DNA of 64,000 bases from NCBI GenBank assembly GCA_030699125.1, contig JAUYKM010000009.1, positions 291,365 to 355,364 on the forward strand. Reading direction: 5' to 3'. Below the pieces are notes generated by a model. That model was not told the DNA's origin, ran no database searches, and saw only the letters and a list, made by a program, of their open reading frames with translations. Shown here piece after piece: positions 1 to 14,176 of the stretch (position 1 is the stretch's first letter; every line of letters starts with the position of its first letter). Made by a program: the position numbers and the translations under genes. The stretch is from Candidatus Daviesbacteria bacterium (lineage in GTDB: Bacteria; Patescibacteriota; Microgenomatia; Daviesbacterales; UBA10151).

Positions 1-507
1 CTTCTACTCAACAAAGGAATTAATAGAAATAATTGGTTTGTTTTGCTTGCTCCCTCCGGATTATTGATTTATTCTTTTTATTTATATCTGAATGTTGGCG
101 ATCCATTTTATTTTGTGACAGTGGAACAACATTGGCAAAGAAGTATAACAATTCCTGCCAGGGCATTTTTTATCACCTTAAATAATATGTTGTATCCTGG
201 ATATCTGCTAAGCCGCTATGGCCAATTTTGGGATTTGCTATTTACAGCACTGGGATTGGGTTTAATTATAATGAATTTTAAAAAACTTCCTAAAGACTTT
301 GCCATATTCAGCTTAATATCGATTGGTTTGCCTCTTGCCTCGCCAACCATTGAGGCTATTCCACGCTATCTTCTGCCTATATTCCCAATTTTTATTTTAA
401 TCGCATTAATAAAAAATCCCTATCTTTCATTTGCCTACCAAATATTTGGCGTAACGCTATTAGCATTTTATGCAACTTTGTTTATTAATGGATATTGGGT
501 AAGTTAG
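1..507 (+). CDS. integral membrane protein, 5'-partial (C-terminal portion; possibly GT39/PMT-like glycosyltransferase tail)
   Basis: The frame of ORF 43..507 stays open back to position 1, so the CDS begins outside the window. The product is strongly hydrophobic and multi-TM. Confidence 0.5.
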   Translation, partial: LLLNKGINRNNWFVLLAPSGLLIYSFYLYLNVGDPFYFVTVEQHWQRSITIPARAFFITLNNMLYPGYLLSRYGQFWDLLFTALGLGLIIMNFKKLPKDFAIFSLISIGLPLASPTIEAIPRYLLPIFPIFILIALIKNPYLSFAYQIFGVTLLAFYATLFINGYWVS

Positions 508-1247
508 GGGCTAAAAATAACTCTTCTGGAAACCTCTGTGGTATTACTGGCTCTATCTTGCGCTTTAATATTAAAATTATTTTCACCGTCGTTAAGTTGG
601 ACAATGGTTTTAAATTTTCCTTCATGATCAACGATTGATTGACTGTCATTAATAAATATCAAAGCACCCTCTTCGGTTAAACCACTAATTGTGAGTTGCC
701 TTTTTCCTTGAATTTGTTGGCCATCTGCAGGTTCAAATATTTCTAAGGGAGGTTTCTCATTATCATATATTACTTTTTGTGTTTTCGAAGGAAGGCTTTT
801 TTTGCCGTCTTCATCTACTGTTTGTCCATAGAAATTATTAGTACCCAAGCTTAGAGGAATATTTTCAAACCTGAATGTGCTATCAGCAAAGGCTCTGGCA
901 GTTTCTATTAACTTACCATCAAGGTAAAGTTCTACTTCAGAGTTGGAGACAGCGAAACCATTTATGCTAATTGTGGAAGTATTGGTGGCCTCGTAAGGGA
1001 TTATTAACTCAGGTGGGGCAAGGGTTGCAGATTCAATTTGATCCTCCTTTAAAGCAGAAGGGGGGTTAAAAAAATTGGTAATTAAACCTAAACCGCCAAT
1101 AAAGTTGGGGAGAATCCAATTAATTGAGGCATAAGCAAAAATAGCCACAAAAATCAGAGTGATAATAAGGTTGACCTGACTCTTTTTAGCCTGTCTTCTG
1201 ATAATGCGTCTTCTATACATAATGAGATATACCTTTAGTATAAACAA
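504..1247 (-). CDS. membrane-anchored extracellular protein (hypothetical)
   Basis: 247-aa ORF with an N-terminal TM segment (LIITLIFVAIFAYASINWIL) followed by a soluble beta-rich region. No recognisable catalytic motif. Confidence 0.45.
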   Translation of the reverse strand: MFILKVYLIMYRRRIIRRQAKKSQVNLIITLIFVAIFAYASINWILPNFIGGLGLITNFFNPPSALKEDQIESATLAPPELIIPYEATNTSTISINGFAVSNSEVELYLDGKLIETARAFADSTFRFENIPLSLGTNNFYGQTVDEDGKKSLPSKTQKVIYDNEKPPLEIFEPADGQQIQGKRQLTISGLTEEGALIFINDSQSIVDHEGKFKTIVQLNDGENNFNIKAQDRASNTTEVSRRVIFSP

Positions 1248-1289
1248 TTTATCGTAAGTTTGCTAAAATATTACCTGTTGAGACACTAT

Positions 1290-1360
1290 GCGGGATTAGT
1301 ATAGTGGTAATACGCTACCTTCCCAAGGTAGAGCCGCCGGTCCGATTCCGGTATCCCGCT
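1290..1360 (+). tRNA. tRNA-Gly (anticodon CCC)
   Basis: Cloverleaf read directly from sequence: acceptor GCGGGAT/ATCCCGC, D-arm GTAT-AGTGGTAA-TAC, anticodon stem CTACC/GGTAG with loop TTCCCAA, T-arm with TCCGATT loop. CCA is not encoded. Confidence 0.8.
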
Positions 1361-2855
1361 CTGAATGGGATTTCGCAGGGTTGAAAATTTTCTGACTCTG
1401 CGCGGGTGGGGGCGCGCAGAGTGCTGCAAAGCCCTGATTGTAGCTGACTTCAAGGTGCCGATTAGTCAAAAAGTAGTTCGAGCCGACAGTTTTTGACAAG
1501 AATGCTAATTCTTGGCTTGTATTTTTTGCGCGCGCGATTTTTGCGCACGAAAGTGCGCTACCAATGAAGTTTTTGAACGGTTCGAGCCGACTCGAACCTT
1601 CTGTTTGAATTTTGGTAATTTCCTCATTTTTTCTTAACTTTTCTTCAAAAAGTTCGTTCTTTTTATTCTTGTAAGTTTGAGCATCAACAACACCATCTAA
1701 GTAACTATCAAGTAATATATTTAATTTTTGATCCAGCAGTTGTATTTCTTCTACTAACCTCTTTAGGTTTTGATCTTTATTTTGTTTTTCTAAAAGCTCA
1801 TCCCTTTCCAGCCATTTATACCAATCATCCGCCCACTTTTCAGGCAGAGCTGCATCTGAGACAATCTTTGTTATTTGCGACTCTAATTCAACTTCTGTGA
1901 TCGGTTTTTGAGAGCAAGAGCCAAGTTTTTTAGTACAACTGTAGTAAGTATATTCAACTTTCACTCCCAAGGATTTAACTAATTTAAATTTCTTTTCTCC
2001 AGTCACACTTGCACCGCATTCTCCACACCTTACCAGCCCTAAATACGAGAGATTATGCTTATTATATTTAGGCCTAGATATTATCTTGAACTGTTTTTGT
2101 ACTCGATCAAACAGCTGCTTAGAAATGAACAACTTATGTGTTCCATCATAATATTCTCCTCCATAATAGATAATTCCAATGTAGAATTTATTACTTAAAG
2201 CATTTTTAAGCCTGTCTATTTTTAAAGGATTTCCAAATTTATCGCTAAATCCATTTTTATGAAGAAACAAACAGATATCAGTAAATGTTTTATCACCATC
2301 TGCAAAATACTCAAAAGCTTTTCTTAAAATCCTGGATTTTTCAGGATCAATCTCTATAGTTCCCAATTTTTCATTATTTATATATCCCCAAGGAGCTTTG
2401 GCGGGCAAGACACCATTCCTTAGCTTTTGTCTTAAACCTCTTTTAACATTCTCACTTAAGTTGTCTATGTAATATTTAGACTGACCAAAGGAAATATTTA
2501 ACATAAACTTTCCTTGAGGGGTATTTTCAAACCAAGAGGTAGGAAATTTTAAATCTAACAACTGACCAGTATCTAAAAGATAAATTATTTTTCCTCCATC
2601 AATTGAATTTCTAGCTAATCTATCCGGGTGCCAAGAGATAATACCTTGTGCTTGCCCTTTTTCAACTAACTGTAAAAGTCTTTCAAACTGTTTTCTACCC
2701 GGAGTTTTGGCAGTCTTTGCTTCTTCAATAAATTCAACTATCTCCAAGCCCTCACGTTGGGCAAATTCGGTTAGTTCATCAACTTGTGCCTCTATGGAGA
2801 GAATTTGTTTATCAGCCTCATCTGTTGATTTTCTGCAGTATGCTATATATTTCAT
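1296..2855 (-). CDS. large serine recombinase (resolvase catalytic domain + recombinase domain + zinc ribbon + coiled coil)
   Basis: N-terminus MKYIAYCRKSTDEADKQILSIEAQ carries the resolvase-type catalytic Ser motif. A CGECG..C..C zinc-ribbon and a long C-terminal coiled coil are present. The last ~65 codons of the ORF run through IR-A and antisense to tRNA-Gly, so the true stop is uncertain. Confidence 0.8.
   Translation of the reverse strand: MKYIAYCRKSTDEADKQILSIEAQVDELTEFAQREGLEIVEFIEEAKTAKTPGRKQFERLLQLVEKGQAQGIISWHPDRLARNSIDGGKIIYLLDTGQLLDLKFPTSWFENTPQGKFMLNISFGQSKYYIDNLSENVKRGLRQKLRNGVLPAKAPWGYINNEKLGTIEIDPEKSRILRKAFEYFADGDKTFTDICLFLHKNGFSDKFGNPLKIDRLKNALSNKFYIGIIYYGGEYYDGTHKLFISKQLFDRVQKQFKIISRPKYNKHNLSYLGLVRCGECGASVTGEKKFKLVKSLGVKVEYTYYSCTKKLGSCSQKPITEVELESQITKIVSDAALPEKWADDWYKWLERDELLEKQNKDQNLKRLVEEIQLLDQKLNILLDSYLDGVVDAQTYKNKKNELFEEKLRKNEEITKIQTEGSSRLEPFKNFIGSALSCAKIARAKNTSQELAFLSKTVGSNYFLTNRHLEVSYNQGFAALCAPPPAQSQKIFNPAKSHSERDTGIGPAALPWEGSVLPLY
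1358..1460. repeat. Inverted repeat A, left arm (103 bp; perfect inverted copy of 2960-3062)
   Basis: The reverse complement of 1358-1460 equals 2960-3062 with no mismatch. The arm abuts and overlaps the last 3 nt of tRNA-Gly and contains a 9-bp internal hairpin, CTCTGCGCG..CGCGCAGAG. Confidence 0.9.
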
Positions 2856-2959
2856 GGCAGCGTTACTATTTTTCTTTCCCTCCTAAAAGGAAAAGTTCTT
2901 TCTTTCTAAAACATAAATTTTTGCGTGCGCTTAATCGTTTTTTGTTTTCTTTTTTACTA

Positions 2960-3062
2960 CGGCACCTTGAAGTCAGCTACAATCAGGGCTTTGCAGCACT
3001 CTGCGCGCCCCCACCCGCGCAGAGTCAGAAAATTTTCAACCCTGCGAAATCCCATTCAGAGC
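2960..3062. repeat. Inverted repeat A, right arm (A')
   Basis: Perfect reverse-complement copy of 1358-1460. It is directly contiguous with IR-B, overlapping it by 5 nt. Confidence 0.9.
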
Positions 3063-3163
3063 TCGTTTACGAAAGCGCTCGAACTCAATTCCAATCGACG
3101 CATTAGTTGTCGGCGCCCAGCTCACGTTCGGTCCCAACCTTTTTATTTAATCCCTACCTTTTC
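3058..3163. repeat. Inverted repeat B, left arm (106 bp)
   Basis: The reverse complement of 10899-11004 matches 3058-3163 with 3 mismatches. Confidence 0.85.
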
Positions 3164-3256
3164 CGAAGCTCTGAAACTGGAGGCTCGAACATCCCGCACC
3201 AACTGGTGCGTGATACAAAAAACGCAAAAATTTTAAAGAACTTTTCGCACCCTAAA

Positions 3257-4705
3257 TTATGTACTTATCCAAAATGTATTTATTACACTATCTCCGATAA
3301 ACTCAGCAAGCTGTCCTGTAGGTTTTTGTTCCCCGATACACTTACCAACTCTTACTGTCCAATTAGGACCAGTAGGATCTAATATTTCAGACAATGGATC
3401 AATGACTTCTTTTATATCCTCATTTTTCCTGTCCCAAGTGTCACAGGTGGAAAGCCTATCACTTTTTTTACCATGTCTTTTACTGGAAGCAGCTTCTTTA
3501 ATTTTTGTTTTTGCAGTCTCCCAATCTAAACTTAATTTTTTCAGTACCTCATCTGTTATAAAAAGATTTTCTGACTCTCTACAAGATAGTTTTAAATACT
3601 TTATGTGTTTTTGAGGATTTTGAGATGTATTCTGTGGATGAGTAGCATCGCCATCTATTAAAGCGTATCCAGCGGCGTTCGTAGATGTGCTCCTCATACT
3701 CTCAAAAAGTTTTTCAAGAGTTTTTTGGTATTCATGTATTTCCTGACCATCACAGGGAATAGCTGCTAATTTAACTTTGTGATGTCTAGGGACTTGGCTC
3801 CATATTTTATAGTCATCGTCTCCTTCAACTAACATTAAAGGTGCTCCAAAAAGGGGACCCATTAACGCATGCCCACCTAAACAGGTAGCTAATTCTTGGA
3901 GGGCACTTTCAAACTTAATAGCTTTTTGTTCTTGGACAGAATTATTTAAGTATATTGCGCTCGTATTTTCTCCACCATGGTGTCCTAGAGCAGCTAAAAG
4001 GGTAGTGCTATGAGTAGCAATAATTATTTGTGCGTTATACTTTTCCATTAGCTCAACTAAAAATCCTGCTAAATGTTGTTGAAGATCTGGGTGGAGATGG
4101 GTATCCGGTTCATCAATAAGAAGTAATCTTGTGCTTTGATTCTCAAGTTGCCAAATAGAACATATAGTTAGTAAATCTAAACCTAATGCTAACATTTCAG
4201 TTTCTCCACTACTAAGCTGATCCTTGCTTGAAATTACTTCATCTGTTGATACTCTTTTTAATTCAAAAAAGGGATTTTCTGGTTTTAATTTGAAACTAAA
4301 ATCTGGAAAGAGCTTAATCATTAACTCCGCAATGTCTTTAACTGGTGAATCTACCTTACCTTCCTCAAAATAATAACCCCTTTTGGTAAGATAGGTGTTA
4401 ATTCTTGAGATAACCCTTTCTCTAAACTGAAGTGATAAATTACTTTGTCTATTGGAAGCTCTTGTGGAGGCTGCGACTTCTTGGAGAGCAAAATCAGAGT
4501 TAAATTGTAGTTCACCCGCTCTTTCTGGAGATGTTAAATGACGAGCGTTATGGTCAGCATTGAGTAAAGCTCTTAATAATGCACTTTTGCCTGAACCATT
4601 TCTACCGAAGAGGACAGTTATATCAGTTAGATTTTTCAGAATCCACTTATCCCCACCTAAATGGGGTGGTCTTTGTGCTTCTAATTGGTCAAAATATAAA
4701 GACAT
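3257..4705 (-). CDS. OLD-family ATP-dependent nuclease (ABC-type ATPase N-domain + C-terminal Toprim)
   Basis: Walker A GRNGSGKS, ABC signature LSSGETEML, Walker B LLLIDEPDTHLHP, H-loop IIATHS. C-terminal Toprim motif 1 LMLVEGDDD and motif 2 ALIDGDATH. Only 482 aa, compact relative to P2 Old or GajA. Confidence 0.7.
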   Translation of the reverse strand: MSLYFDQLEAQRPPHLGGDKWILKNLTDITVLFGRNGSGKSALLRALLNADHNARHLTSPERAGELQFNSDFALQEVAASTRASNRQSNLSLQFRERVISRINTYLTKRGYYFEEGKVDSPVKDIAELMIKLFPDFSFKLKPENPFFELKRVSTDEVISSKDQLSSGETEMLALGLDLLTICSIWQLENQSTRLLLIDEPDTHLHPDLQQHLAGFLVELMEKYNAQIIIATHSTTLLAALGHHGGENTSAIYLNNSVQEQKAIKFESALQELATCLGGHALMGPLFGAPLMLVEGDDDYKIWSQVPRHHKVKLAAIPCDGQEIHEYQKTLEKLFESMRSTSTNAAGYALIDGDATHPQNTSQNPQKHIKYLKLSCRESENLFITDEVLKKLSLDWETAKTKIKEAASSKRHGKKSDRLSTCDTWDRKNEDIKEVIDPLSEILDPTGPNWTVRVGKCIGEQKPTGQLAEFIGDSVINTFWIST

Positions 4706-4707
4706 AC

Positions 4708-5211
4708 TTATTTTTTTCTAGTTTCTTCTAAAATATTTCTTACAATAGCTGAAGTATTAGAATTTTGTTTAATCGCTTCTTCCTTAAGCCATTTTGCTTG
4801 GCTTTTTGTAACTACAAGATTTAAACGTGTCAAAGAGTCAGATATGAATTGGGGATTTCCTAACTCTATTCCGTGCGCACTAGTGGCTTTTAATCCGTTT
4901 TCTCTGGGTACTGTATTTCCGGATTCTTGAAATCTTTTCTGGATAATATCTAGGGCAAATCTGCTAGCCCCTTCATCGCTAAATTTGTATTTATTATCTT
5001 CAAGATACTCTTGTGACACCCAAACCTCATATTCTTTTATGAGCCCAGCCGCTGTTTTTGGTAGAGTAGAATAAATCTTTAAAATTACCCTGTACCCGTC
5101 AACTCCTGGTCCAATTTTTCCCACGTAGTCAATCTTTACTTCAACACCTTCTGTTAAAATTATTGTTTGGTTATCAGCTGTCATAAAAATAAGTATAACA
5201 TACTTGCGCAA
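4708..5211 (-). CDS. hypothetical protein with C-terminal ribbon-helix-helix (CopG/Arc-like) DNA-binding motif
   Basis: C-terminus VVTKSQAKWLKEEAIKQNSNTSAIVRNILEE fits the RHH beta-strand/helix/helix pattern. The stop lies 3 nt upstream of the OLD gene start, suggesting translational coupling. Confidence 0.45.
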   Translation of the reverse strand: MRKYVILIFMTADNQTIILTEGVEVKIDYVGKIGPGVDGYRVILKIYSTLPKTAAGLIKEYEVWVSQEYLEDNKYKFSDEGASRFALDIIQKRFQESGNTVPRENGLKATSAHGIELGNPQFISDSLTRLNLVVTKSQAKWLKEEAIKQNSNTSAIVRNILEETRKK

Positions 5212-5325
5212 CTACGCAATAACTTAAATTCCAAAGAATATACTAAGTAAGTATGTTCTAACTTGACGAGTGAGTATTCACTTTTCTATCATTTGTTAAC
5301 TTAAGTTAGAAGTTTAAAACAAGAA

Positions 5326-5886
5326 TCATGAGGCCATTAATCTGTCCCACTCCCTTTGCATATCTAAAATAACTCTTTCCTCTTGAGTAATTGTATTTCC
5401 TGTTTCTAATTTATTAGCTATTTGTGAAACTCGATCTATAACGGTTACAAATAAAGATTGCATAGCATGTCTGAAATCATTCTCATGATCTAAGGCCCTA
5501 TTATGTGCTACTTCATGGACAAATGCACTTATTGCTTCAGTAAATTGGGTATTAAATAATGACTCGTGCATTCCGATAGCTTTTTGGCCTAGATTAATAC
5601 CTTTACTCCCAGTACCATTGTATAAAAATAAGTCATTTGGTAAAGCAACACCCGTAGCAAATTGGGTATAAAGCCTTAGTAATCCTAATTGAGCTAGTTG
5701 ACGCTCATTCGGACTCAAAACAATTTCAAAATCGTCAACTTCATCCTCTGCAGGGTTCATTCGCTCGACGATATTTTTTAATTTACCTCTCAAAGCACCT
5801 AATATCTGATCTTCTGGAGATTGTTCTCTTGTGACATCAACGCTAGCAATTTCTGCTTGGTTTTGTTCGTTTATCAATTCAAGCAA
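5326..5886 (-). CDS. HExxH zinc-metallopeptidase-like protein (ImmA/IrrE- or SprT-like size class)
   Basis: Motif FVHEVAHNRALDHEND gives HExxH plus a downstream acidic ligand candidate. 186 aa, co-directional with and upstream of the RHH and OLD genes. Confidence 0.4.
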   Translation of the reverse strand: MLELINEQNQAEIASVDVTREQSPEDQILGALRGKLKNIVERMNPAEDEVDDFEIVLSPNERQLAQLGLLRLYTQFATGVALPNDLFLYNGTGSKGINLGQKAIGMHESLFNTQFTEAISAFVHEVAHNRALDHENDFRHAMQSLFVTVIDRVSQIANKLETGNTITQEERVILDMQREWDRLMAS

Positions 5887-5964
5887 ATGTTTTCCTGTAA
5901 GATATCCAGCACTTTCTCCTAACTGACCATAAAATTGGTCAGATTGTCGCCATTGAATATATTT

Positions 5965-8397
5965 CTAAATTGCGCTTTGCCCAGTAGGAGCTTCATGTTT
6001 AATTTCAGGAACTAATTCTTCTAATTTATTTACTGCTTCAACAATGCCTGGTAATTGAGCTTCCATTTGTGCTACTCGTGCTTTTTCAGCATCCGACATA
6101 GATGCTTCTTTTTGGACAATACTACCTTTCCCTTCAATCTCTGGTGCTTCAGGTTGTGATACTGGTACACGACCAAATTCCTGTTTTAGTTGCTCCCTTT
6201 GTTGAATAATAAGTCTTTCTTGATCTGATAGTTCAGTGGGATTTTTTCTCATTGCTGCTTGATAAAGCTGTTCTTGTTCAGAAGTCCATGCTTTTACTTC
6301 AATAGCTCTGATAATATCTACTTCAACTACTCCTTTGCTTCCATTTTCAGTTGGTAGCGTAATAACCTCACCAATTGGTGCTGTACCTTCTCGAAATCCT
6401 CCTAGTGGAAGTGGCTGACCTGGCTCTATTTGACTTCTAGCCCTGCGAAATGCTTCTTGAAAAGATTGAAAGTATGAGTCGTCTAATTCTACTTCTACAA
6501 ATAACCCTTCTTCGCTCTCGTTTTTAACATTACGTGCGAGTAGAACATTCTCTTGAGTTACAGAATCATAATCTAATCCAAATGTAGTAACAAACTCACC
6601 TTGAGATGTAAAAATTTTCTTAAAAAGTCTATTTTCTAATCCATATGCTGCAATACCGCGTAATAAATATAAAAGTTTTTGATCATCTTCTTTAGGTTTA
6701 ATTAGAGCATGAAAAAGAAGATCTCTTGGAACTTCTCCTCTTAGTCTTAATCTGATTGTGTTAGGATTGCCTTCTCTCTGTTCAACTGCAATAACTTGAG
6801 AAGATAACCGATCACTTATAAGACGAATGAATCCTGCTGGATCTTTGACATCAGGAAAATCTTCATGAGCAACTTCCATTCCATATTCTTGAGCAAACTG
6901 TTCTTTTCTATATTGAGGAATTGTAGGTGCTTCGTTACTAGCTGCTTCAACTGTACTGAGCTTACTACTCGCCTTGGGCATTCCTATAGATTCCATATAG
7001 GAAGGGCAAACAACATAGCCTTGTTTTTCTAATTCTTTGACTTGATTATCACTTACACCACGATCCCAAGCTATGTAATTCTTTCCCTCAAAAAGTTGTT
7101 GATACCCTCTTTTGTCATATCCCTTATAGGGTAATTGCTTTGCTAATTTTTCAATTACTACAAACGCTCCTTGCCTGTCGAAGCTATATCCAGAATCAAC
7201 ATGTCCTGCCCACAAGAATTCAGAACGTCTAATTTGTTCAACAAGATCATCTTTTGACATTGCTCCTACCATTTCATCAAGATAGCGGCCAAGATCAAAA
7301 GGACTTACAGGTGGTCTATCTATACTCATTCTATATTTCAGATTATTTAGTTGAATTGTTACTTGCTCTGGTCCCACCCAATAATCTTCAGCAGTATCAC
7401 CCTTATCTTTAAAATTCATAACTTGGCCATTAATAAATAAGCGACCTTTAGTGGGTTCTAAACCTTCAGATTTTGGAAGCCATTTTATTGCCCCAAACCT
7501 ATTTTGGTAATCCATATTTTGTAAATAAGGATTTTCAGCAGATACTCCTAAAGTTGGAACTTGTTGAAGTGCTCTTATCACTTCTGCATTATCAGTTTCT
7601 ATGATATAGGTATTGCGACCGGTTCGTTGTGCTTCTTGCATATCAGCAAGCAACCAATCATGTTTTACTATATGAGCAGGGTTTTGACCATGCAAACTCT
7701 CCCATTCTCTATTAACATCAGCCGCTTTTGCTAATCTATAATCTACTGTCCATCCTTCCCCCTGGATCTGGAACTTCTGTACTCCAAAGTCTCGCATAAA
7801 ACGAATAGCAGTCTGTTTAAGCCCAATTCCGTTTCCCCCTGCAGTATTCATGTTCGCTGGTTTTTCAGAATGAGGACTTAAAACTCCTGTGGGATCTTCG
7901 AAAGGCCAGTTTCCTTCTATACGAAAACGTTTACCGCCACCTGGTAGATCTTCAGCTATAAATCTTACTCCGTTCAAAGTACCTGGTGCTTGAGGATTAT
8001 GATCTACAAAATTTTGTACAAGTTCCCTAGTTAGCCATGCAGAATTGTACTCATCTCTTGACTTATCTAAGAAGCTGTCAGTTGCTATTGGCTGCGTATC
8101 AACGCCGCGTTCTCTAAAGAAATATTGTAATAACTTTTGATCAGTTATAACTCCCTCTATCTTTGCTCCATTACCATTTTCTGCAGTTAGAGCAGGAGGA
8201 GATTCAGGTTCGGCCGGTGGCTGTGTTAGTTGAGGTGTTTGCTCGGTTGGTTCACCTGCAACATTAGGATTTGCAGTCGGTTCGCCTCTCTTACCAAAAA
8301 ATCTATCCCTTAATCCTGCAAATCTTGACTTTCCCCCTGCTGGTTCTGGATTTTCCGTAGTCATAGGTTCTGACATATTATATATCCATATTAGCAT
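5965..8397 (-). CDS. large hypothetical protein with N-terminal GHKL (Bergerat-fold) ATPase-like motifs
   Basis: N-box-like RELVQNFVDH (ExxxNxxD), G1-like EDLPGGGKRF and G2-like AGGNGIGLKQ, in the order expected for histidine-kinase/MORC/Hsp90-type ATPases. Pro/Ala-rich N-terminal linker. 810 aa with atypical (GC-rich) composition. Confidence 0.4.
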   Translation of the reverse strand: MLIWIYNMSEPMTTENPEPAGGKSRFAGLRDRFFGKRGEPTANPNVAGEPTEQTPQLTQPPAEPESPPALTAENGNGAKIEGVITDQKLLQYFFRERGVDTQPIATDSFLDKSRDEYNSAWLTRELVQNFVDHNPQAPGTLNGVRFIAEDLPGGGKRFRIEGNWPFEDPTGVLSPHSEKPANMNTAGGNGIGLKQTAIRFMRDFGVQKFQIQGEGWTVDYRLAKAADVNREWESLHGQNPAHIVKHDWLLADMQEAQRTGRNTYIIETDNAEVIRALQQVPTLGVSAENPYLQNMDYQNRFGAIKWLPKSEGLEPTKGRLFINGQVMNFKDKGDTAEDYWVGPEQVTIQLNNLKYRMSIDRPPVSPFDLGRYLDEMVGAMSKDDLVEQIRRSEFLWAGHVDSGYSFDRQGAFVVIEKLAKQLPYKGYDKRGYQQLFEGKNYIAWDRGVSDNQVKELEKQGYVVCPSYMESIGMPKASSKLSTVEAASNEAPTIPQYRKEQFAQEYGMEVAHEDFPDVKDPAGFIRLISDRLSSQVIAVEQREGNPNTIRLRLRGEVPRDLLFHALIKPKEDDQKLLYLLRGIAAYGLENRLFKKIFTSQGEFVTTFGLDYDSVTQENVLLARNVKNESEEGLFVEVELDDSYFQSFQEAFRRARSQIEPGQPLPLGGFREGTAPIGEVITLPTENGSKGVVEVDIIRAIEVKAWTSEQEQLYQAAMRKNPTELSDQERLIIQQREQLKQEFGRVPVSQPEAPEIEGKGSIVQKEASMSDAEKARVAQMEAQLPGIVEAVNKLEELVPEIKHEAPTGQSAI

Positions 8398-8424
8398 AAT
8401 TTTGAGAGCGGCTATGCTATAATA

Positions 8425-9336
8425 ATGCTATTAATAGTCAAGCTAAATATGGCCGGACAAGAACAATCACAATTTGTTAGTGCAGTAAAAAATGTTGGAG
8501 CCCCGGATGGTTCAACATTCGATATTTTAAGAGGTGCTCCAGAAGGAGTAGCTAATCTTAGAGGTAGTGCTTTAGTTAGAATGAGAGAAGTTGTCCAAGC
8601 AAATGAGCCAGAAATTCTCCACTATTTAAATGCAGGACCAGGAATATCCTCAGAGTATGCTATGTCCTCTGGAATCATGCATTCTAAGAAACCTGAGGTA
8701 AAGGCAGATTTAACTAGAGTTTCAATTGAGGAACATCTTGCAGAAGGAAACCGCTGGGGTGCAGTAGGAATACTTGCTTATGCACGAGCAGCAGAACTTC
8801 CTTTAACTGAATATGGTGAACCATTTGTAGCAGAGCAGTATGATACTGCATTGGGTGAAGGTGACCCTGGTGAAGCTTGGCATATTGCTCGAACTATGCT
8901 TTCCGAAGGAGATAAAATAGCAATCATAGAACCAGAAGCACAAGAGCGAGCTACACAAGCATGGACTGAAAGAGAAAAAAGAGCATTCGAACTTCATGCA
9001 GAAGATGTTTTGGCTAGAACTGAACAACCAGAAGGAATGAGAGAAGATTGGGAGCTACGTAATTTATTTGATGAGATGAGATTTCGGGAAGATGGCGGTT
9101 TTAATAGTGAAACTCCAAGTGATCTGGCTAGAAGAATTGCAGAGAAGGTAGTTAATCAAGATTTACAAACTAAAGGCAGAGAGTGGACTGCAATTATTGA
9201 TGCAACAGAAGCAAAAATGTCTGATGACTATATTGCTCAACTTAATAGCAGAGTTTCTCCTACAGCTATTGACAAAGTAAGAGGTTGGTGGAATGGAATT
9301 AGAGCCAAAATAGAGAAAATAATTCCTCCACAATAG
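8425..9336 (+). CDS. hypothetical acidic protein (island cargo)
   Basis: 303-aa ORF divergent from the GHKL gene. Ala/Glu/Arg-rich composition unlike the flanking genome. No recognisable motif. The true start may be the internal MAGQEQ at 8449. Confidence 0.4.
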   Translation: MLLIVKLNMAGQEQSQFVSAVKNVGAPDGSTFDILRGAPEGVANLRGSALVRMREVVQANEPEILHYLNAGPGISSEYAMSSGIMHSKKPEVKADLTRVSIEEHLAEGNRWGAVGILAYARAAELPLTEYGEPFVAEQYDTALGEGDPGEAWHIARTMLSEGDKIAIIEPEAQERATQAWTEREKRAFELHAEDVLARTEQPEGMREDWELRNLFDEMRFREDGGFNSETPSDLARRIAEKVVNQDLQTKGREWTAIIDATEAKMSDDYIAQLNSRVSPTAIDKVRGWWNGIRAKIEKIIPPQ

Positions 9337-9621
9337 CTAGTGGGTCTTCTTAGCTATAACTTTTTGTAATCCACCCTTACCGTATTTAATAATCTGTCCA
9401 ATTTTAGAAACAGTTGAGGTAGAAGTCCCAACTTTTCCTGCTATCTCATCATAGGTTTTTTCTTCTAAAATTAACTTTGCTATTTTTAACCTTTGGGCTA
9501 AATCCAAAATTTCTTCTTCAGTCAAAAGATCATCAATAAAATTAGCTAAATCTTTAGATTTTAATTTTCTTAAGGTATCAACTAATAATTTTCTATCTTT
9601 GTCTAAGTTAAGCTTTGTCAT
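9337..9621 (-). CDS. TrpR-like YerC/YecD family DNA-binding protein
   Basis: 94 aa. The segment TYDEIAGKVGTSTSTVSKIGQIIKYG matches the YerC/YecD Trp-repressor-like HTH family. Confidence 0.55.
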   Translation of the reverse strand: MTKLNLDKDRKLLVDTLRKLKSKDLANFIDDLLTEEEILDLAQRLKIAKLILEEKTYDEIAGKVGTSTSTVSKIGQIIKYGKGGLQKVIAKKTH

Positions 9622-9668
9622 AGTAACATTGTAGCGTTGTAGTATAGTACAACGTCATAACTTTTAAT

Positions 9669-10295
9669 TTAAGTCCTGTAAACAGTTGCCTTACCTTTTT
9701 TCTCTGATTTCAGTTTACCATTTTTAACTAACTCTGATAAATAACTGCTTGCTGAACTTTGAGAAACTTGTAAAAGGTCTCTTACATCTTGATTGTTAAT
9801 TTCTTTTTTCCTTGCTAACTCAACTATTTGATTTAAGTTTTCTTCTCTCCTCTGTTTTCTTTTTTCATTTGCCTTTTGTAAAAGCTCGGAAACTTTTTGA
9901 TCTAACTTTTTTTCTATTTCTTCCTCAATATTAACTTTTGGAACTTCTGGAGCTTTTTCTTCTTTGGGTTGAGGTTTTTCTTTCTTAATTTCTGGGTCAG
10001 GTTTTTGTTCCTCTTGTGGTTTAGGACTTTCTGTTTCTTTCTCCCTTGGTTTTTCTTCCGGAATTTCAGAAACTGGGGGAGATTCGGGGGTCTGGGGTGA
10101 TTGGGGAGGAGTTGGGGAAGGTTCAGGTTCAACTGTAGGAGTTTCAACAACGGGTGGAGTTTCTACTGTTGGTTCTTCTATTTTAACTTCTTCTTCAACT
10201 TTCGGTTGTGGAACTTCCTCTGGAGTTTTCTCTTCTTCGGGCTTAGGTTCTGGCGATGGGGTTTGATCGGTGGGTTGGTTTACATCATCTGCCAT
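9669..10295 (-). CDS. winged-helix DNA-binding protein with Pro/Glu/Lys-rich low-complexity N-terminal region
   Basis: N-terminal ~140 aa are PEPK-rich repeats. C-terminus NLNQIVELARKKEINNQDVRDLLQVSQSSASSYLSELVKNGKL...KATVYR is wHTH-like. Confidence 0.45.
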   Translation of the reverse strand: MADDVNQPTDQTPSPEPKPEEEKTPEEVPQPKVEEEVKIEEPTVETPPVVETPTVEPEPSPTPPQSPQTPESPPVSEIPEEKPREKETESPKPQEEQKPDPEIKKEKPQPKEEKAPEVPKVNIEEEIEKKLDQKVSELLQKANEKRKQRREENLNQIVELARKKEINNQDVRDLLQVSQSSASSYLSELVKNGKLKSEKKGKATVYRT

Positions 10296-10299
10296 GATT

Positions 10300-10898
10300 T
10301 CAGTCTAGCACAGAATCGGCCAAAATGGTGGAATCTGGCCGATTATCTCCCAGAGGTTGGAAGGAAGCGGTTCCGCCGCCCCCGCTCACTTCAGGATAAT
10401 TTCCCAAAAAGGAGGGCAGCACCTTAAAAGAATCTTTCGGAATTTTTAAAAAACTTTCTTGGGTGCTGCCCGACCATCGCGAGAGCCGAGAAAAATAATT
10501 TCGGAGTTTCAAATTACTCGGCTCGAGCCATCGGGAGTCCTCGCGAGCGAAGCTCTCGAGAGCAAGCGAGCGGTATGGAAACAGAAAAGGGTAAAAATTG
10601 CGGCGGGGGCGAAAAGGAATTACCCCCGCAACGGCAGGAGGAACATATACAGATAAAAGATTACCAGAGACTGTAAAGAATAAATCGAAGACTATGATAT
10701 CGGCGAGTCGCCCCCTAGTGGCGACCTCTCGCCCAAAAGCGGGGGTGCCGCTTCCATTATTTTGGGTGGGTGGGTGATGGGAATTTAGAAAGCCTTTAGG
10801 ACTTTTATTTTTTCTGTCTTTTCTTGTCCCGCTTGCGGGACTATAATATAAAAATCGCGCGCATTTATTGTGATTTGCAAAAAATACAAAGAGCAAGA
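10300..10898. other. GC-rich, hairpin-dense non-coding region (candidate large structured RNA or recombination/regulatory region)
   Basis: Numerous perfect stems: AATCGGCCA..TGGCCGATT, GGCAGCACC..GGTGCTGCC, GAGCCGAG..CTCGGCTC, GCGGGGG..CCCCCGC, GGCGAGTCGCC..GGCGACCTCTCGCC, GTCCCGCTTGCGGGAC. ORFs in this stretch are Arg/Gly/Pro-rich and implausible as proteins. Confidence 0.35.
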
Positions 10899-11004
10899 GA
10901 AAAGGTAGGGATTAAAATAAAAGGTTGGGAACGAACGTGAGCTGGGCGCCGACAACTAATGCGTCGATTGGAATTGAGTTCGAGCGCTTTCGTAAACGAG
11001 CTCT
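10899..11004. repeat. Inverted repeat B, right arm (B')
   Basis: Reverse-complement copy of 3058-3163 with 3 mismatches in 106 bp. Confidence 0.85.
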
Positions 11005-11041
11005 CAGTGAATTTTATGGCTCTAAAGAGATATTTAGTGTA

Positions 11042-11647
11042 CTAACAAGCTAGCTCACCTTCACCGCACGAGGAAGGAAGCTCTCTTATTTGAGGGACGC
11101 CTGGTTCCTTGCCGCTGATGATGTAATCCTCAGCTTTTGTGACTTCCCATTCATGTTCATGATTCCAAAGATTCCAGAAATGACGCCACTCGTTCCAACC
11201 AATCCCCAGATGCTGTACGTATATGCTGCTTTCAACCAAAAGCTGGCCTATTTTTCTGCCGGTCATACATGGCATGCTATAACAGTAGACTATGATATCT
11301 TTATCCTGGGGAAGCTCCCGAAATTGTTTTACAATCCTGTCTTTCTCATCATAAGCAGATGTATTGGGATCCTTATAGGCAGGGATATTGGTAGCTCCAA
11401 TGATATGCTCTTTTTCATATTCCTGAGGACTTCTCAAATCGACTAAGACAAAACCTGTGTCGCCTTTATCCATCATCCGTCTTAAGGAATGGGGGCTGAC
11501 ATGTACTGCATTTTCAACAAGATAAAATTCTTTGATTAAGTCTTCTTTGGTTGGTTTTTGCATTCGCTGGTAGACTAAAACAGTTGCTCCACCCACCAAT
11601 GCTCCGACGAGAGCTGCTATAGCAACAATCTTAATAGTTTGATACAT
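11042..11647 (-). CDS. rhodanese-like domain protein with N-terminal membrane anchor
   Basis: N-terminal TM segment. The stretch VLVDLRSPQEYEKEHIIGATNIP followed by IIVYCYSMPCMTGRKIG is a rhodanese fold with an active-site Cys region. Confidence 0.55.
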   Translation of the reverse strand: MYQTIKIVAIAALVGALVGGATVLVYQRMQKPTKEDLIKEFYLVENAVHVSPHSLRRMMDKGDTGFVLVDLRSPQEYEKEHIIGATNIPAYKDPNTSAYDEKDRIVKQFRELPQDKDIIVYCYSMPCMTGRKIGQLLVESSIYVQHLGIGWNEWRHFWNLWNHEHEWEVTKAEDYIISGKEPGVPQIRELPSSCGEGELAC

Positions 11648-11676
11648 ATTTTATCCGTTACTTCTTGTAAACTTAT

Positions 11677-11706
11677 TATAGAAAACCGCGTACTTTCAGT
11701 ACGCGG
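11677..11706 (-). terminator. putative intrinsic terminator downstream of the DsbA-like gene
   Basis: Perfect 9-bp stem CCGCGTACT/AGTACGCGG with a short loop, followed on the minus strand by GTTTTCTAT. Confidence 0.4.
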
Positions 11707-11710
11707 AAGT

Positions 11711-12370
11711 TTATTGGACCTTTAAAATTGCCTCTTCAATAATTTTTTTAAATTCTTCATAGGATTTGGGATTCTGCAATTTTTTATCATTTAGAAAAAA
11801 TGTAGGAGTGGCATTAACTCTAAATCTAATACCACTTTGATAACTATCTTCTATTCTATCTTTTATTTCCTTCAAATCAAGGTCATTTTTAAATCTTTCA
11901 ACATCAAGATTAAGTAAACGGGCATATTCTATAAAGATGTCTCCAACATTTTTCTCACCTGACCAGTTCTTCTGCTTTTCAAAAAGCATATCATGCATCT
12001 GCCAAAAATTGTTTTGTATACCAGCAGCTTCTGCAGCACGAGCAGCAAACTCAGCGTTAATGTGAATTTGTCTTAAAGGAAAATGGCGATAAACAAACTG
12101 TATTTTGTCGCCAAACTCTTGATTTAGTTGTTTGACAACAGGATAATAAGCTCCGCATGCAGGGCACTGGAAATCGCTATATTCAACCAGAGTAACTTTT
12201 GCATCTTTACTACCCTTTACCCAATCAGAAGAAGATACCACGTTAACGGGTTGAGAAATCTGATCTGAAGTTTTATCAGATGGAGCACTATTTGCAAGTT
12301 TTATAACTGAAAAAATTACTATAAAGAGACCTAAAACAGCAAGAATACCAATTTTTATTGCTTTCGACAT
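11711..12370 (-). CDS. DsbA-family thiol:disulfide oxidoreductase (secreted)
   Basis: N-terminal signal/TM segment and a thioredoxin-fold CPAC active site (DFQCPACGAY). Confidence 0.65.
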   Translation of the reverse strand: MSKAIKIGILAVLGLFIVIFSVIKLANSAPSDKTSDQISQPVNVVSSSDWVKGSKDAKVTLVEYSDFQCPACGAYYPVVKQLNQEFGDKIQFVYRHFPLRQIHINAEFAARAAEAAGIQNNFWQMHDMLFEKQKNWSGEKNVGDIFIEYARLLNLDVERFKNDLDLKEIKDRIEDSYQSGIRFRVNATPTFFLNDKKLQNPKSYEEFKKIIEEAILKVQ

Positions 12371-12487
12371 AGAGTTTGCGATTATTATACATCAAATATT
12401 GACAGCAAGGCATTAGATTATTGTCTAGGCCCCGATACATCCAGAACGGTTTAAGTATACATTAAAGGTTCATATAATGGCTCCTAC

Positions 12488-13138
12488 ATGAGAGCCTACA
12501 AAATACTTCCGGTAGAGATGAAGGTTAAAGATTTTAACCTGTCTAAAGATGCCTTAAAAAGGCTATATTGGATGGATTGGTATTTTAGTCATGGCAAGAA
12601 TGCAGAAGCTACCTGTAGACACTTTTCTATTTCCAAGAGTGTGTTCTATAGATGGCTACCCAGATTCTCTAAATTCAACCTAGCTACTTTAGAAGAAAGA
12701 AGCAAAAGACCTATTCATTTAAGGGGAATGACCACTAATCCAGCTATTTTAAAAAGGATTTATCAAGTTAGGTTAAATGATATGACTAGTAAATACAAGA
12801 TCAAAGAACAACTTAAGAGAGAGGGTATTAACATTTCTACCAAGGTCATACAAACAGATAATGGTTCAGAGTATCTCCTCTATTTCCATGACCTGACTCA
12901 GAAACTGAATATTCCACATTACTTTTCCTATCCTCACAGCCCAAAGATGAACTCTAGAGTTGAGAGGCTTATTCAAACCATTGAGTATGAATTCTTCCAT
13001 TATCAGGATCCTTTACCTGAAATTGACAATATCCAAAGATTATGTGGGCAGTTTAATCTTAAGTACAACCAACTTAGATTCCATCAAGCTATATCTTACA
13101 AAACACCACAAGAATATGTTACAACTCTATTATCTTAG
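12488..13138 (+). pseudogene. IS481-family (rve/DDE) transposase remnant with internal deletion
   Basis: N-terminal HTH (SISKSVFYRWL) and C-terminal integrase-core tail (TDNGSEY..HSPKMNSRVERLIQT..YNQLRFHQA) are present. The segment carrying the first two catalytic Asp residues is missing in this 216-aa product; a full-length protein would be about 350-400 aa. Confidence 0.55.
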
Positions 13139-13254
13139 AAAGGAGGATAACCGTTCTCTATCTAGGGTGCCAGCACAATTATTTGAAAAACTCCCCTCAT
13201 CTATGTAACATTTACCGTAGATGCTTTTAGCAGAAGTAGTTTAAGGGAAGTAAT

Positions 13255-13326
13255 GCCGACTTAGCTCAGAGGTAGAGCAGCTGTTTCGTAAACAGCAGGT
13301 CACTGGTTCGATTCCAGTAGTCGGCT
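13255..13326 (+). tRNA. tRNA-Thr (anticodon CGT)
   Basis: Acceptor GCCGACT/AGTCGGC, D-arm GCTC-AGAGGTA-GAGC, anticodon stem GCTGT/ACAGC with loop TTCGTAA, T-arm ACTGG-TTCGATT-CCAGT. Confidence 0.8.
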
Positions 13327-13425
13327 CAAAATCCTTAAGCGTTGGAAATTTTCGCGCACTTTTTTTCCATGAATTCTGAATCATTATTTTTGTTATTCAA
13401 TCAATGGGGATTAGGTTTTTTGACC

Positions 13426-13785
13426 TTACTGTAGATGCTGTTTAACTTTATTGACTATTTCAACCAAAGTAACATCTGATTTAATAAAGTAATCAACCGC
13501 CCCTAATTTTTTGGCTTTTTCTATATCCTCTTTTTGGGAGAGGTTGGAAGCAACAATCACAGGAGTTTTAATTCCCTGTCTACTAATTTCTGATAAAACA
13601 AAGAATCCATCTTTCTTGGGCATCACTAGATCCAAAATAATTAAATCAAAGGATTCCTTGGATAGAACAGCTAAAGATTCTTCACCACTAAAAACTACAC
13701 TTGTTGAATACCCTGCGGAGTTTAATTTCAAACTCATCACCCGGGCCAGCGCTTTCTCATCTTCAACTATTAAAATCTTTTTCAT
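13426..13785 (-). CDS. response regulator, receiver domain only (CheY-like)
   Basis: MKKILIVEDE ... DLVMPKKDG phospho-acceptor architecture. 119 aa. Confidence 0.75.
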   Translation of the reverse strand: MKKILIVEDEKALARVMSLKLNSAGYSTSVVFSGEESLAVLSKESFDLIILDLVMPKKDGFFVLSEISRQGIKTPVIVASNLSQKEDIEKAKKLGAVDYFIKSDVTLVEIVNKVKQHLQ

Positions 13786-14176
13786 ATATTCTCAGTGTTT
13801 TCAGCTTTCTTAGATTCTAATACTTCTTGTATTTTTTCGAGGATTTTTTCCAGAGGATTATTTGCCTTGACTAGATAGTAAGATGGCTGATCCCTAACTA
13901 CATTAGACAAAAGTGGATCATTAACATCAAAATTTGTAAGAATTATAATGGATGCTTTCTTGCCCCATACGTCTTCTCTTATCTTATGCATGACACTCAT
14001 ACCGTCCATTTTTGGTAAGACATTATCAAGTAGAATCAAATCCGGATGTTCGCGTAGAGCAATTTTTAATCCTTCCTCGCCATCTCTTGCTTCAAGGACA
14101 GAAAAACCTTCATTGGTAAGTTTATTACTGAGTGCGTTCAGTACTGGTGCTTCATCTTCCACTATGAGTATTTTCT

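Follow-up and report, generated by a model that had tools for sequence, protein, structure and literature searches.

The window, a 64,000-nucleotide (nt) stretch of a Candidatus Daviesbacteria metagenome-assembled genome (MAG) from the Microgenomates branch of the Candidate Phyla Radiation (CPR), encodes a small putative regulator, p167, followed directly by a 482-amino-acid ABC-ATPase/Toprim-like protein of the OLD/PARIS kind. Relatives of p167 are preceded by the same operator and promoter and followed by unrelated genes, and we consider it likely that regulator and operator form a portable unit whose effector is exchangeable, with at least 5 other unrelated effectors besides the ABC-Toprim protein. 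The original prediction had placed this pair in a 4-gene defence module, together with ORFs (open reading frames) of 810 and 186 amino acids that were assigned a GHKL ATPase and an HExxH peptidase. The coordinates of the 4 minus-strand ORFs agree with those claimed (Table 1), as do the first 2 gaps of 78 and 113 nt; the last measures 2 nt rather than 3 nt. The prediction did correctly recognise a defence-type gene whose partner is undescribed. The locus as a whole, though, is probably made up of 3 independent units: a regulator-nuclease cassette (A), a single GHKL-zincin gene (B), and a serine recombinase cassette (C).

The regulator is preceded by the sequence TTGCGYARTTGCGCAA, which consists of 2 tandem copies of the self-complementary octamer TTGCGCAA. 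Behind it, across loci, lies an extended −10 box, TGTTAYAMT, about 7 nt ahead of the ATG. This operator/promoter stands upstream of the p167 homologue at all 9 loci examined (the window, L027, L031, L032, L035, L039, L044, L045, and L046), and at 7 of them the upstream DNA is otherwise unrelated, the exceptions being the close matches L027 and L046. The 28-nt element occurs once in the window, with 0 occurrences expected by chance. The conserved palindromes are predicted to act as the operator of p167. The second operator half-site is the TTG from which the 167-amino-acid ORF had been called, so that this start falls inside the conserved element; 20 homologues, 61% to 92% identical, begin about 9 residues after it, and we therefore place the real start at ATG 5184, giving a protein of 158 amino acids (p158). 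An independent contig from another sample, L046, matches the window at 91.7% nucleotide identity over positions 3217 to 5280, with the cassette sitting behind a histidine-phosphatase-like ORF and no trace of the GHKL-zincin gene. Because it has its own conserved operator/promoter and recurs behind a different gene in L046, the cassette is autonomous.

At every locus with readable downstream sequence, the gene after the regulator starts 1 to 3 nt past the stop codon or overlaps it. The identity of this gene changes from locus to locus. The window and L046 have the 482-amino-acid ABC-Toprim protein; L027-30 and L044 have a SIR2_2 protein of 347 amino acids (32 bits against a gathering score of 24.5); L031 has a Shedu SduA protein of 358 amino acids (PADLOC, 4e-25); L032 has a 379-amino-acid PD-(D/E)xK-type protein with a PD...EIK motif and a weak HSDR_N match; L045 has a DpnII-MboI-type protein of 333 amino acids, also PD-(D/E)xK-type; and L035-38 have an unannotated protein of 229 amino acids. 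Comparison of these 6 partners revealed no segment common to them. Between the window and L027, regulator and promoter are 82% identical and about 170 nt past the effector are 71% to 81% identical, while the effector ORF in between differs.

The window and L027 thus share p167 and the downstream flank at what is apparently the same chromosomal locus, with different effectors, and such a pattern could also arise if p167 were an ordinary host regulator whose downstream position is an insertion hotspot, with no functional coupling. We regard this as very unlikely. The pair of regulator and effector, together with the operator, is found in at least 7 genomic contexts, for example behind proBA, asparaginase, serpins, and histidine phosphatase, and the start of the effector, always 1 to 3 nt away or overlapping, leaves no room for a separate promoter.

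The regulator itself matched no family in Pfam, NCBIfam, PHROG, or PADLOC, and a PDB profile search with its alignment returned nothing. Its AlphaFold model (pLDDT 71) contains an N-terminal domain of 4 strands and 2 helices, a low-confidence linker, and 2 C-terminal helices. The linker is nearly invariant in sequence (SGNTVPRENGLKATSxHGIELGNPQ). The C-terminal ribbon-helix-helix (RHH) of the original prediction is supported by the alignment, in which the beta-alpha-alpha unit runs in register with CopG, and the closest structural matches of this part of the protein are the RHH antitoxins ParD and MazE4. An exhaustive profile search recovered 49 representative clusters in which the N-terminal domain takes 3 forms: alone, with a C-terminal RHH, or behind an N-terminal HTH_17. 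Proteins P0288, P0299, P0300, and P0301 represent these forms, the stand-alone one being about 110 to 130 amino acids long. A part of a transcription factor that senses a signal or mediates oligomerisation would be expected to swap its DNA-binding domain in this way, and this is the candidate role of the N-terminal domain. Scans with the p167 alignment yielded only 2 short loci in metagenomes and none in viral contigs, and the family has so far been seen only in CPR/Microgenomates-like metagenomic contigs; a literature search of incomplete coverage found no description of it. We infer that p167 is an undescribed small regulator, combining a novel N-terminal domain with an RHH, and a predicted repressor.

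The 482-amino-acid protein begins with a complete ABC ATPase (Pfam AAA_21, 7.5e-21; AAA_15, 1.9e-18), in which the motifs GxNGSGKS, LSSGE, LLIDEPD, and HS are invariant in 28 homologues. The C-terminal motifs CLGGHALMGPLF, VEGDDD, DGD, and CxESEN are invariant in the same set, including residues E294, D351, and D353. Of the ABC-ATPase plus Toprim architecture that had been proposed, the first half is confirmed by Walker A, signature, Walker B, and H-loop; the second is read from the succession VEGDDD...DGD...ESEN and from hidden Markov model (HMM) matches below threshold. The best PADLOC model is AriAB (4.7e-27), aligned over residues 78 to 402 and model positions 218 to 541 of 694, and further matches are AriA, GajA (1.8e-16, through the ATPase core), Old, and ATPase-Toprim_I-B. 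Taken alone, the C-terminal domain gives weak PADLOC matches to AriB (7.5e-4) and AriAB (4.3e-4). The Pfam DUF4435 value for the window protein is 0.064; among family members the domain reaches 7e-4 for DUF4435 (4 of 11) and 8.8e-3 for OLD-like_TOPRIM (4 of 11), all under the curated cut-offs, and a weak DUF3226 match is likewise under threshold. A PDB profile search matched PtuA, AriA, and OLD (6P74, Walker B region) through the ATPase core only, and a PDB sequence search with the C-terminal domain produced only noise. The earlier statement that no DUF4435 partner accompanies the nuclease needs qualification in this light, as the protein's own Toprim-like domain has a weak DUF4435/AriB character, and PARIS genes with ariA and ariB merged have already been described along with 4 classes of OLD (PMC11464382).

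This family comprises at least 724 proteins of about 480 amino acids in Patescibacteria, Gemmatimonadaceae, and Gammaproteobacteria. None of the 4 homologues examined in other genomes (L040-L043) has a p167-like neighbour; nearby are an MmeI-type restriction-modification gene in L042 and a Mu-like prophage in L043. In L040 (4889-7579) and L041 (4741-7823), the homologue lies directly after a tRNA gene (tRNA-Gln and tRNA-Ser, respectively) and beside a large serine recombinase, which is an annotated gene in L041 and an unannotated tblastn match in L040. This arrangement suggests tRNA-targeting "islets" of about 3 kb that carry the 482-amino-acid homologue alone. Judged by its motifs and matches, the protein appears to be a compact member of the OLD/PARIS kind, normally encoded as a single gene, and a predicted nuclease.

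The 2 remaining ORFs are one interrupted gene, because they lie in the same frame with one TAG between them and the residues encoded in the supposed 78-bp gap are conserved. Minus-strand translation of 5326 to 8397 gives 1,024 codons in one frame with this single internal stop, and the 26 codons of the gap (KYIQWRQSDQFYGQLGESAGYLTGKH...) are conserved in homologues, most of which are 950 to 1,010 amino acids long and unbroken across the TAG position. The large ORF corresponds to NCBI protein Q8P92_02495, at 100% identity. The GHKL and HExxH assignments were both sound: across 24 diverse homologues, E93, N97, D100, ExxQNxxDxN, and GGNGIG..KQ near the N-terminus and HExxHxxxxxH near the C-terminus are invariant. 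They are the 2 ends of one protein, interrupted here. An AlphaFold model (mean pLDDT 77) was made for P0002, a 73%-identical homologue, and Foldseek matched it to the N-terminal and middle domains of Hsp90 (E 1e-4, probability 1.0) and also to Topo VI-B and MORC2/3, with TM-scores that are low, the protein being multidomain. Its C-terminus matched the minimal zincin abylysin (probability 1.0, E 0.06). In Pfam, the large protein gives no HATPase_c match at any threshold, and the zincin end matches WLM (0.063) and YgjP-like (0.17) under threshold; one homologue has a precomputed PF08325 match and another is named DUF45 by NCBI. The protein is a stand-alone GHKL ATPase of Hsp90/MORC-like type with a probable C-terminal WLM/DUF45-like zincin. 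The HMM check that had been suggested placed none of the 810-, 186-, and 167-amino-acid ORFs in a significant family of Pfam, NCBIfam, PHROGs, or PADLOC, and a literature search, again of incomplete coverage, found no description of the GHKL-zincin family, which we take to be undescribed.

The TAG has probably inactivated or truncated the gene in this genome. Recoding of the stop was considered and is unsupported, as relatives encode Glu at this codon and a second Daviesbacteria copy has an unrelated frameshift. In that copy (L011, 10340-10370) the loss of frame is by 1 nt within the conserved WPFEDPTG motif and splits the gene. Two of the 3 Daviesbacteria-type copies are disrupted, by different lesions.

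The neighbourhoods of the GHKL-zincin gene were compared using one genome per species, which gave 26 loci; these belong to CPR phyla, to Melainabacteria-like MAGs, and to some MAGs that carry wrong labels. A tblastn search with the window proteins found no homologue of the 482- or 167-amino-acid protein within 10 kb at any of the 26 loci, and clustering of all their ORFs yielded zero conserved neighbours. Co-localisation of homologues of the upstream genes with OLD/ABC-Toprim genes had been named beforehand as the deciding comparison for the 4-gene module, and homologues of the GHKL-zincin gene do not co-localise with them at these loci. The only neighbour shared with another locus is a divergent gene for a 303-amino-acid protein, itself without significant family in the Pfam, NCBIfam, PHROGs, and PADLOC scans, whose counterpart in L005 is 76% identical. 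L005 alone shares both this gene and a serine recombinase abutting a tRNA, in its case tRNA-Thr. Among intact homologues of the large gene, the one in L005 is the closest, and the order there (L005, 9041-18181) is 303-amino-acid gene, large gene, variable slot, and serine recombinase overlapping tRNA-Thr. The slot is filled by 3 other genes, for proteins of 464, 88 (DUF5659), and 475 amino acids, 2 of them without any family. It seems likely that the GHKL-zincin gene and the divergent gene are cargo separate from the cassette.

These comparisons bear on the idea that the 4 ORFs form one defence operon, for example one in which the repressor is proteolysed as by CapP. The ORFs are co-directional and adjacent, and a logic of peptidase plus repressor exists in CapH/CapP (PMC13228613). 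Against this, the GHKL and HExxH ORFs belong to a single gene that a stop interrupts; this GHKL-zincin gene has no OLD or p167 neighbour at the 26 other loci, and it is missing from the surroundings of p167 at all 8 other loci of the regulator. With a promoter and operator of its own, the cassette occurs without the large gene and recurs behind an unrelated gene at 92% nucleotide identity. We consider a single operon the least probable of the explanations discussed here. The specific notion of a CapP-like zincin acting on p167 was rejected, as the zincin gene and p167 do not co-occur.

Within the cassette, a dimer of p167 dimers would bind the tandem palindromes TTGCGYAR-TTGCGCAA, which lie directly against the extended −10 box, and would in this way repress an mRNA with almost no leader. 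The message would be bicistronic, encoding the regulator and then, 2 nt downstream, the 482-amino-acid ABC-ATPase/Toprim nuclease. Repression would be lifted by a signal of infection or stress, for which the N-terminal domain or the invariant linker is the presumed sensor, and the ATP-dependent Toprim nuclease would then cut DNA, as OLD and GajA do, or tRNA, as AriB does, so that the infection is aborted. On balance we favour such an autorepressed, portable defence cassette of a regulator plus a swappable effector. More tentatively, the 158-amino-acid protein may be an undescribed portable controller of CPR immune genes, in which a new sensor domain, an invariant linker, an RHH, and a fixed operator/promoter license at least 6 unrelated effectors that are exchanged by cassette replacement between conserved flanks, with GHKL-zincin being, separately, a new single-protein conflict system.

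Several points weigh against these proposals. DNA binding, repression, and the role in phage defence are deduced from architecture, the signal and the nuclease activity are likewise predictions, and the Toprim assignment derives from motifs and HMM matches under threshold. Only about 20 close p167 homologues are known, mostly on short contigs, making for a small census of effectors. An error in sequencing or assembly, or variation within the population, could account for the TAG in the GHKL-zincin gene; that gene would then be intact, yet unlinked to the cassette. Finally, a small upstream DNA-binding protein, overlapping genes, and a palindromic operator also fit a type II toxin-antitoxin (TA) system.

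This last point leads to the main rival, in which p167 is a promiscuous type II antitoxin that binds its toxin directly and autoregulates through the RHH, as part of a TA or abortive-infection module. A small DNA-binding protein encoded upstream, with a gap of 1 to 3 nt or an overlap and a palindromic operator, is the classic type II arrangement, and the resemblance of the C-terminal part to ParD and MazE4 points the same way. The invariant disordered linker could serve as the binding segment, and there is precedent in PanA for a hyperpromiscuous antitoxin domain with many unrelated toxins as partners (PMC10440598). What makes an antitoxin less likely is that one nearly invariant protein would have to neutralise 6 unrelated enzymes that also occur alone. 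The regulators are 61% to 92% identical over their full length, and their 6 partners are structurally unrelated and without a common segment. The 482-amino-acid homologues stand alone without a p167-like neighbour and hence need no antitoxin, and Shedu has been described as mostly monocistronic (PMC12577705). In addition, the N-terminal domain is found with different DNA-binding domains, RHH or HTH_17, a habit of the sensor domains of transcription factors. We judge the antitoxin reading unlikely.

A second possibility is that p167 is a sensor or adaptor that complexes with each effector and activates or licenses it on infection, in the manner of KELA, its RHH sitting on phage or damaged DNA. 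The two-component KELShedu, in which the small double-stranded-DNA-binding KELA complexes with the nuclease, has been described experimentally (PMC12577705); one of the p167 partners is a Shedu nuclease, and the tight spacing is compatible with translational coupling. The strictly conserved palindrome placed exactly at the promoter at 9 of 9 loci argues instead for sequence-specific operator binding. The effectors share no common docking segment, and p167 showed no similarity to WYL, CapW, or BrxR. We therefore hold an adaptor role to be improbable, and retain autorepression at the operator as the preferred account.

Table 1. Positions of the genes, motifs, regulatory elements, and repeats discussed, numbered from the first nucleotide of the window.
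Feature	Position	Strand	Remark
Large serine recombinase (Resolvase, Recombinase, Zn_ribbon_recom)	1296-2855	-	Pfam domains
tRNA-Gly(CCC)	1290-1361		recombinase ORF tail runs through inverted repeat into it
Left arm, 118-nt inverted repeat around recombinase gene	1343-1460		partner 2960-3077, 94% complementary
Composite junction	2960-3172		2960-3077, right arm of recombinase repeat; 3053-3172, left arm of 120-nt cargo repeat
Right arm, 120-nt inverted repeat	10890-11009		pairs with 3053-3172, 93% complementary
Autonomous p167-nuclease cassette	3217-5280 (about)	-	block shared with independent contig L046
482-amino-acid ORF	3257-4705	-	ORF call
CRESEN	3566-3583	-	482-amino-acid protein
DGD	3644-3658	-	482-amino-acid protein
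VEGDDD	3812-3829	-	482-amino-acid protein
Walker B	4103-4126	-	482-amino-acid protein
Signature LSSGE	4202-4216	-	482-amino-acid protein
Walker A	4583-4606	-	482-amino-acid protein
167-amino-acid ORF, TTG start	4708-5211	-	ORF call
p167/p158 regulator, start ATG 5184	4708-5184	-	158 amino acids; homologue starts
p167 C-terminal ribbon-helix-helix	from 4833	-	CopG alignment
p167 linker, nearly invariant, predicted disordered	4840-4923	-	alignment, AlphaFold
Operator and promoter of cassette	5192-5219	-	conserved in 9/9 loci
Extended −10 TGTTATACT	5192-5200	-	7 nt before ATG
Tandem 8-bp palindromes TTGCGTAG-TTGCGCAA	5204-5219	-	predicted operator half-sites
186-amino-acid ORF, TTG start	5326-5886	-	ORF call
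GHKL-zincin gene, about 1,012 amino acids, in-frame TAG inside	5326-8364	-	likely start ATG 8364
HEVAHNRALDH	5485-5517	-	zincin motif
TAG splitting GHKL-zincin gene	5965-5967	-	relatives have GAA (Glu) at this codon
810-amino-acid ORF	5965-8397	-	ORF call
GGNGIGLKQ	7813-7839	-	family-invariant motif
GHKL motif I	7996-8025	-	family-invariant residues
303-amino-acid protein, divergent from GHKL-zincin gene	8425-9336	+	only neighbour shared with another locus (L005, 76% identical)

The surroundings of the 4 ORFs had been described as a mobile, compositionally foreign island next to a recombinase. The GC content of 3257 to 8397 is 0.370 against 0.382 for the window, which does not set the region apart. 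A large serine recombinase and a tRNA-Gly do adjoin, as stated; what lies around them is a set of segments flanked by inverted repeats and no simple island. The 2 repeat pairs, one around the recombinase gene and one around the cargo, overlap by 25 nt at 3053-3077, and the 7.7-kb cargo segment between the 120-nt repeats (3173-10889) contains all 4 ORFs. The 3 repeat copies switch homology at GCTCT, the 3' end of tRNA-Gly. Their interpretation as attL, attP, and attR of a tandem integration was rejected because of the orientations, which are at odds with it. At its end, the recombinase ORF has about 55 codons that are encoded by inverted repeat and the antisense of tRNA-Gly (1296-1460); this peptide, apart from its ending, is also encoded by the mirrored repeat at 2960-3106, and the C-terminus of the recombinase would vary with the junction read into.

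A comparable arrangement is seen in L027, a related Daviesbacteria genome, where an 89-nt inverted-repeat pair (3775-3863 and 9624-9712) surrounds a 5.76-kb segment with TrpR, a p208 homologue, and the p167-SIR2 cassette. The independent contig L028 (4255-5627) has the L027 segment in the opposite orientation. Segments bracketed by such repeats probably invert. Upstream of the 208-amino-acid gene of the window, a GC-richer non-coding stretch (10300-10790, minus strand) folds much better than shuffled sequence (z of −4.9), with 72% conservation in L027. A long leader or a structured RNA not described before may be encoded here, and the ORF of 198 amino acids called within the stretch is probably spurious; Rfam searches of 1-14000 and, at a permissive threshold, 10250-11050 returned only the 2 tRNAs. 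Further on, tRNA-Thr (13255-13327) is closely preceded by a 216-amino-acid ORF (12488-13138) that looks like a truncated transposase of the DDE (rve) type, with an HTH-like (helix-turn-helix-like) N-terminal part and a C-terminal "DNGSEY..." core, as read from its translation.

To our knowledge, known defence systems are sparse in CPR lineages, where most genes have no annotation. If our reading of the cassette is correct, the regulator-operator unit would be a simple handle for finding defence effectors in these organisms. Any gene following a TTGCGYARTTGCGCAA operator and p167 would become a candidate effector, including the unannotated partners of 229 and 379 amino acids. A third fold, RHH plus a new domain, would join the regulators that serve many unrelated immune systems, beside the WYL-type BrxR/CapW and CapH/CapP, and the loci would offer a clean natural case of effector replacement between conserved flanks. 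The correction of a plausible 4-gene call matters for catalogues of defence systems that are built from gene adjacency alone.

Among known systems, the 482-amino-acid protein most closely recalls PARIS with merged AriAB (OLD class 4): in both, one chain joins an AAA_15/AAA_21 ABC ATPase to a Toprim-like domain with VEGxxD and DxD behind it. It differs in covering fewer than half of the AriAB model positions (218 to 541 of 694), with DUF4435 under the Pfam threshold and no evidence of the AriA hexamer scaffold insertions, and in having an RHH regulator ahead of it, an arrangement not described for PARIS. PARIS is activated by anti-restriction proteins such as Ocr, and its AriB cleaves tRNA (PMC11464382). 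Class 1 OLD proteins (P2 Old, Thermus scotoductus OLD) have the same single-gene architecture of ABC ATPase and Toprim, reflected in the matches to 6P74, Old, and ATPase-Toprim_I-B; the protein studied here is much shorter, and its similarity to them is limited to the ATPase core. Gabija is set apart by its UvrD-like helicase GajB: none of the neighbouring genes at 1-12 kb codes for a helicase, whose absence the original prediction had noted.

The GHKL-zincin protein resembles VcSduA, in which GHKL is joined to a Shedu nuclease, and MORC/paraMORC-like ATPases in coupling a GHKL ATPase (N-terminal and middle domains) to a C-terminal effector-type domain. Unlike these, it ends in a WLM/DUF45-like zincin rather than a nuclease, and its gene is interrupted here. 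A C-terminal zincin peptidase is shared with ArdC-type and polyvalent proteins; conflict proteins of mobile elements often carry such peptidases, and GHKL-fused defence proteins such as VcSduA are known (PMC12137116, PMC5512222).

The regulator has its nearest functional analogues in BrxR/CapW and CapH/CapP, which also are conserved regulators located directly upstream of many unrelated defence systems and are thought to repress them until a signal arrives (PMC13228613; for CapW/BrxR, PMC12577705). p167 differs from BrxR/CapW in having an RHH and a novel N-terminal domain, with no WYL and no winged helix-turn-helix, and from CapH/CapP in having no partner peptidase, the zincin gene being absent at 8 of 8 other p167 loci and p167 at 26 of 26 GHKL-zincin loci. 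It is also unusually conserved (at least 61% identity), with an invariant operator. With type II TA systems (ParD, CopG-like; PanA, PMC10440598) the cassette has in common a small upstream RHH protein, overlapping genes, a promoter palindrome, and many unrelated partners, whereas the RHH of p167 is C-terminal rather than N-terminal and the partners are large defence-type enzymes that stand alone elsewhere. What is new here is the regulator-operator unit with exchangeable effectors, whose known kin are defence-regulator or TA-like architectures.

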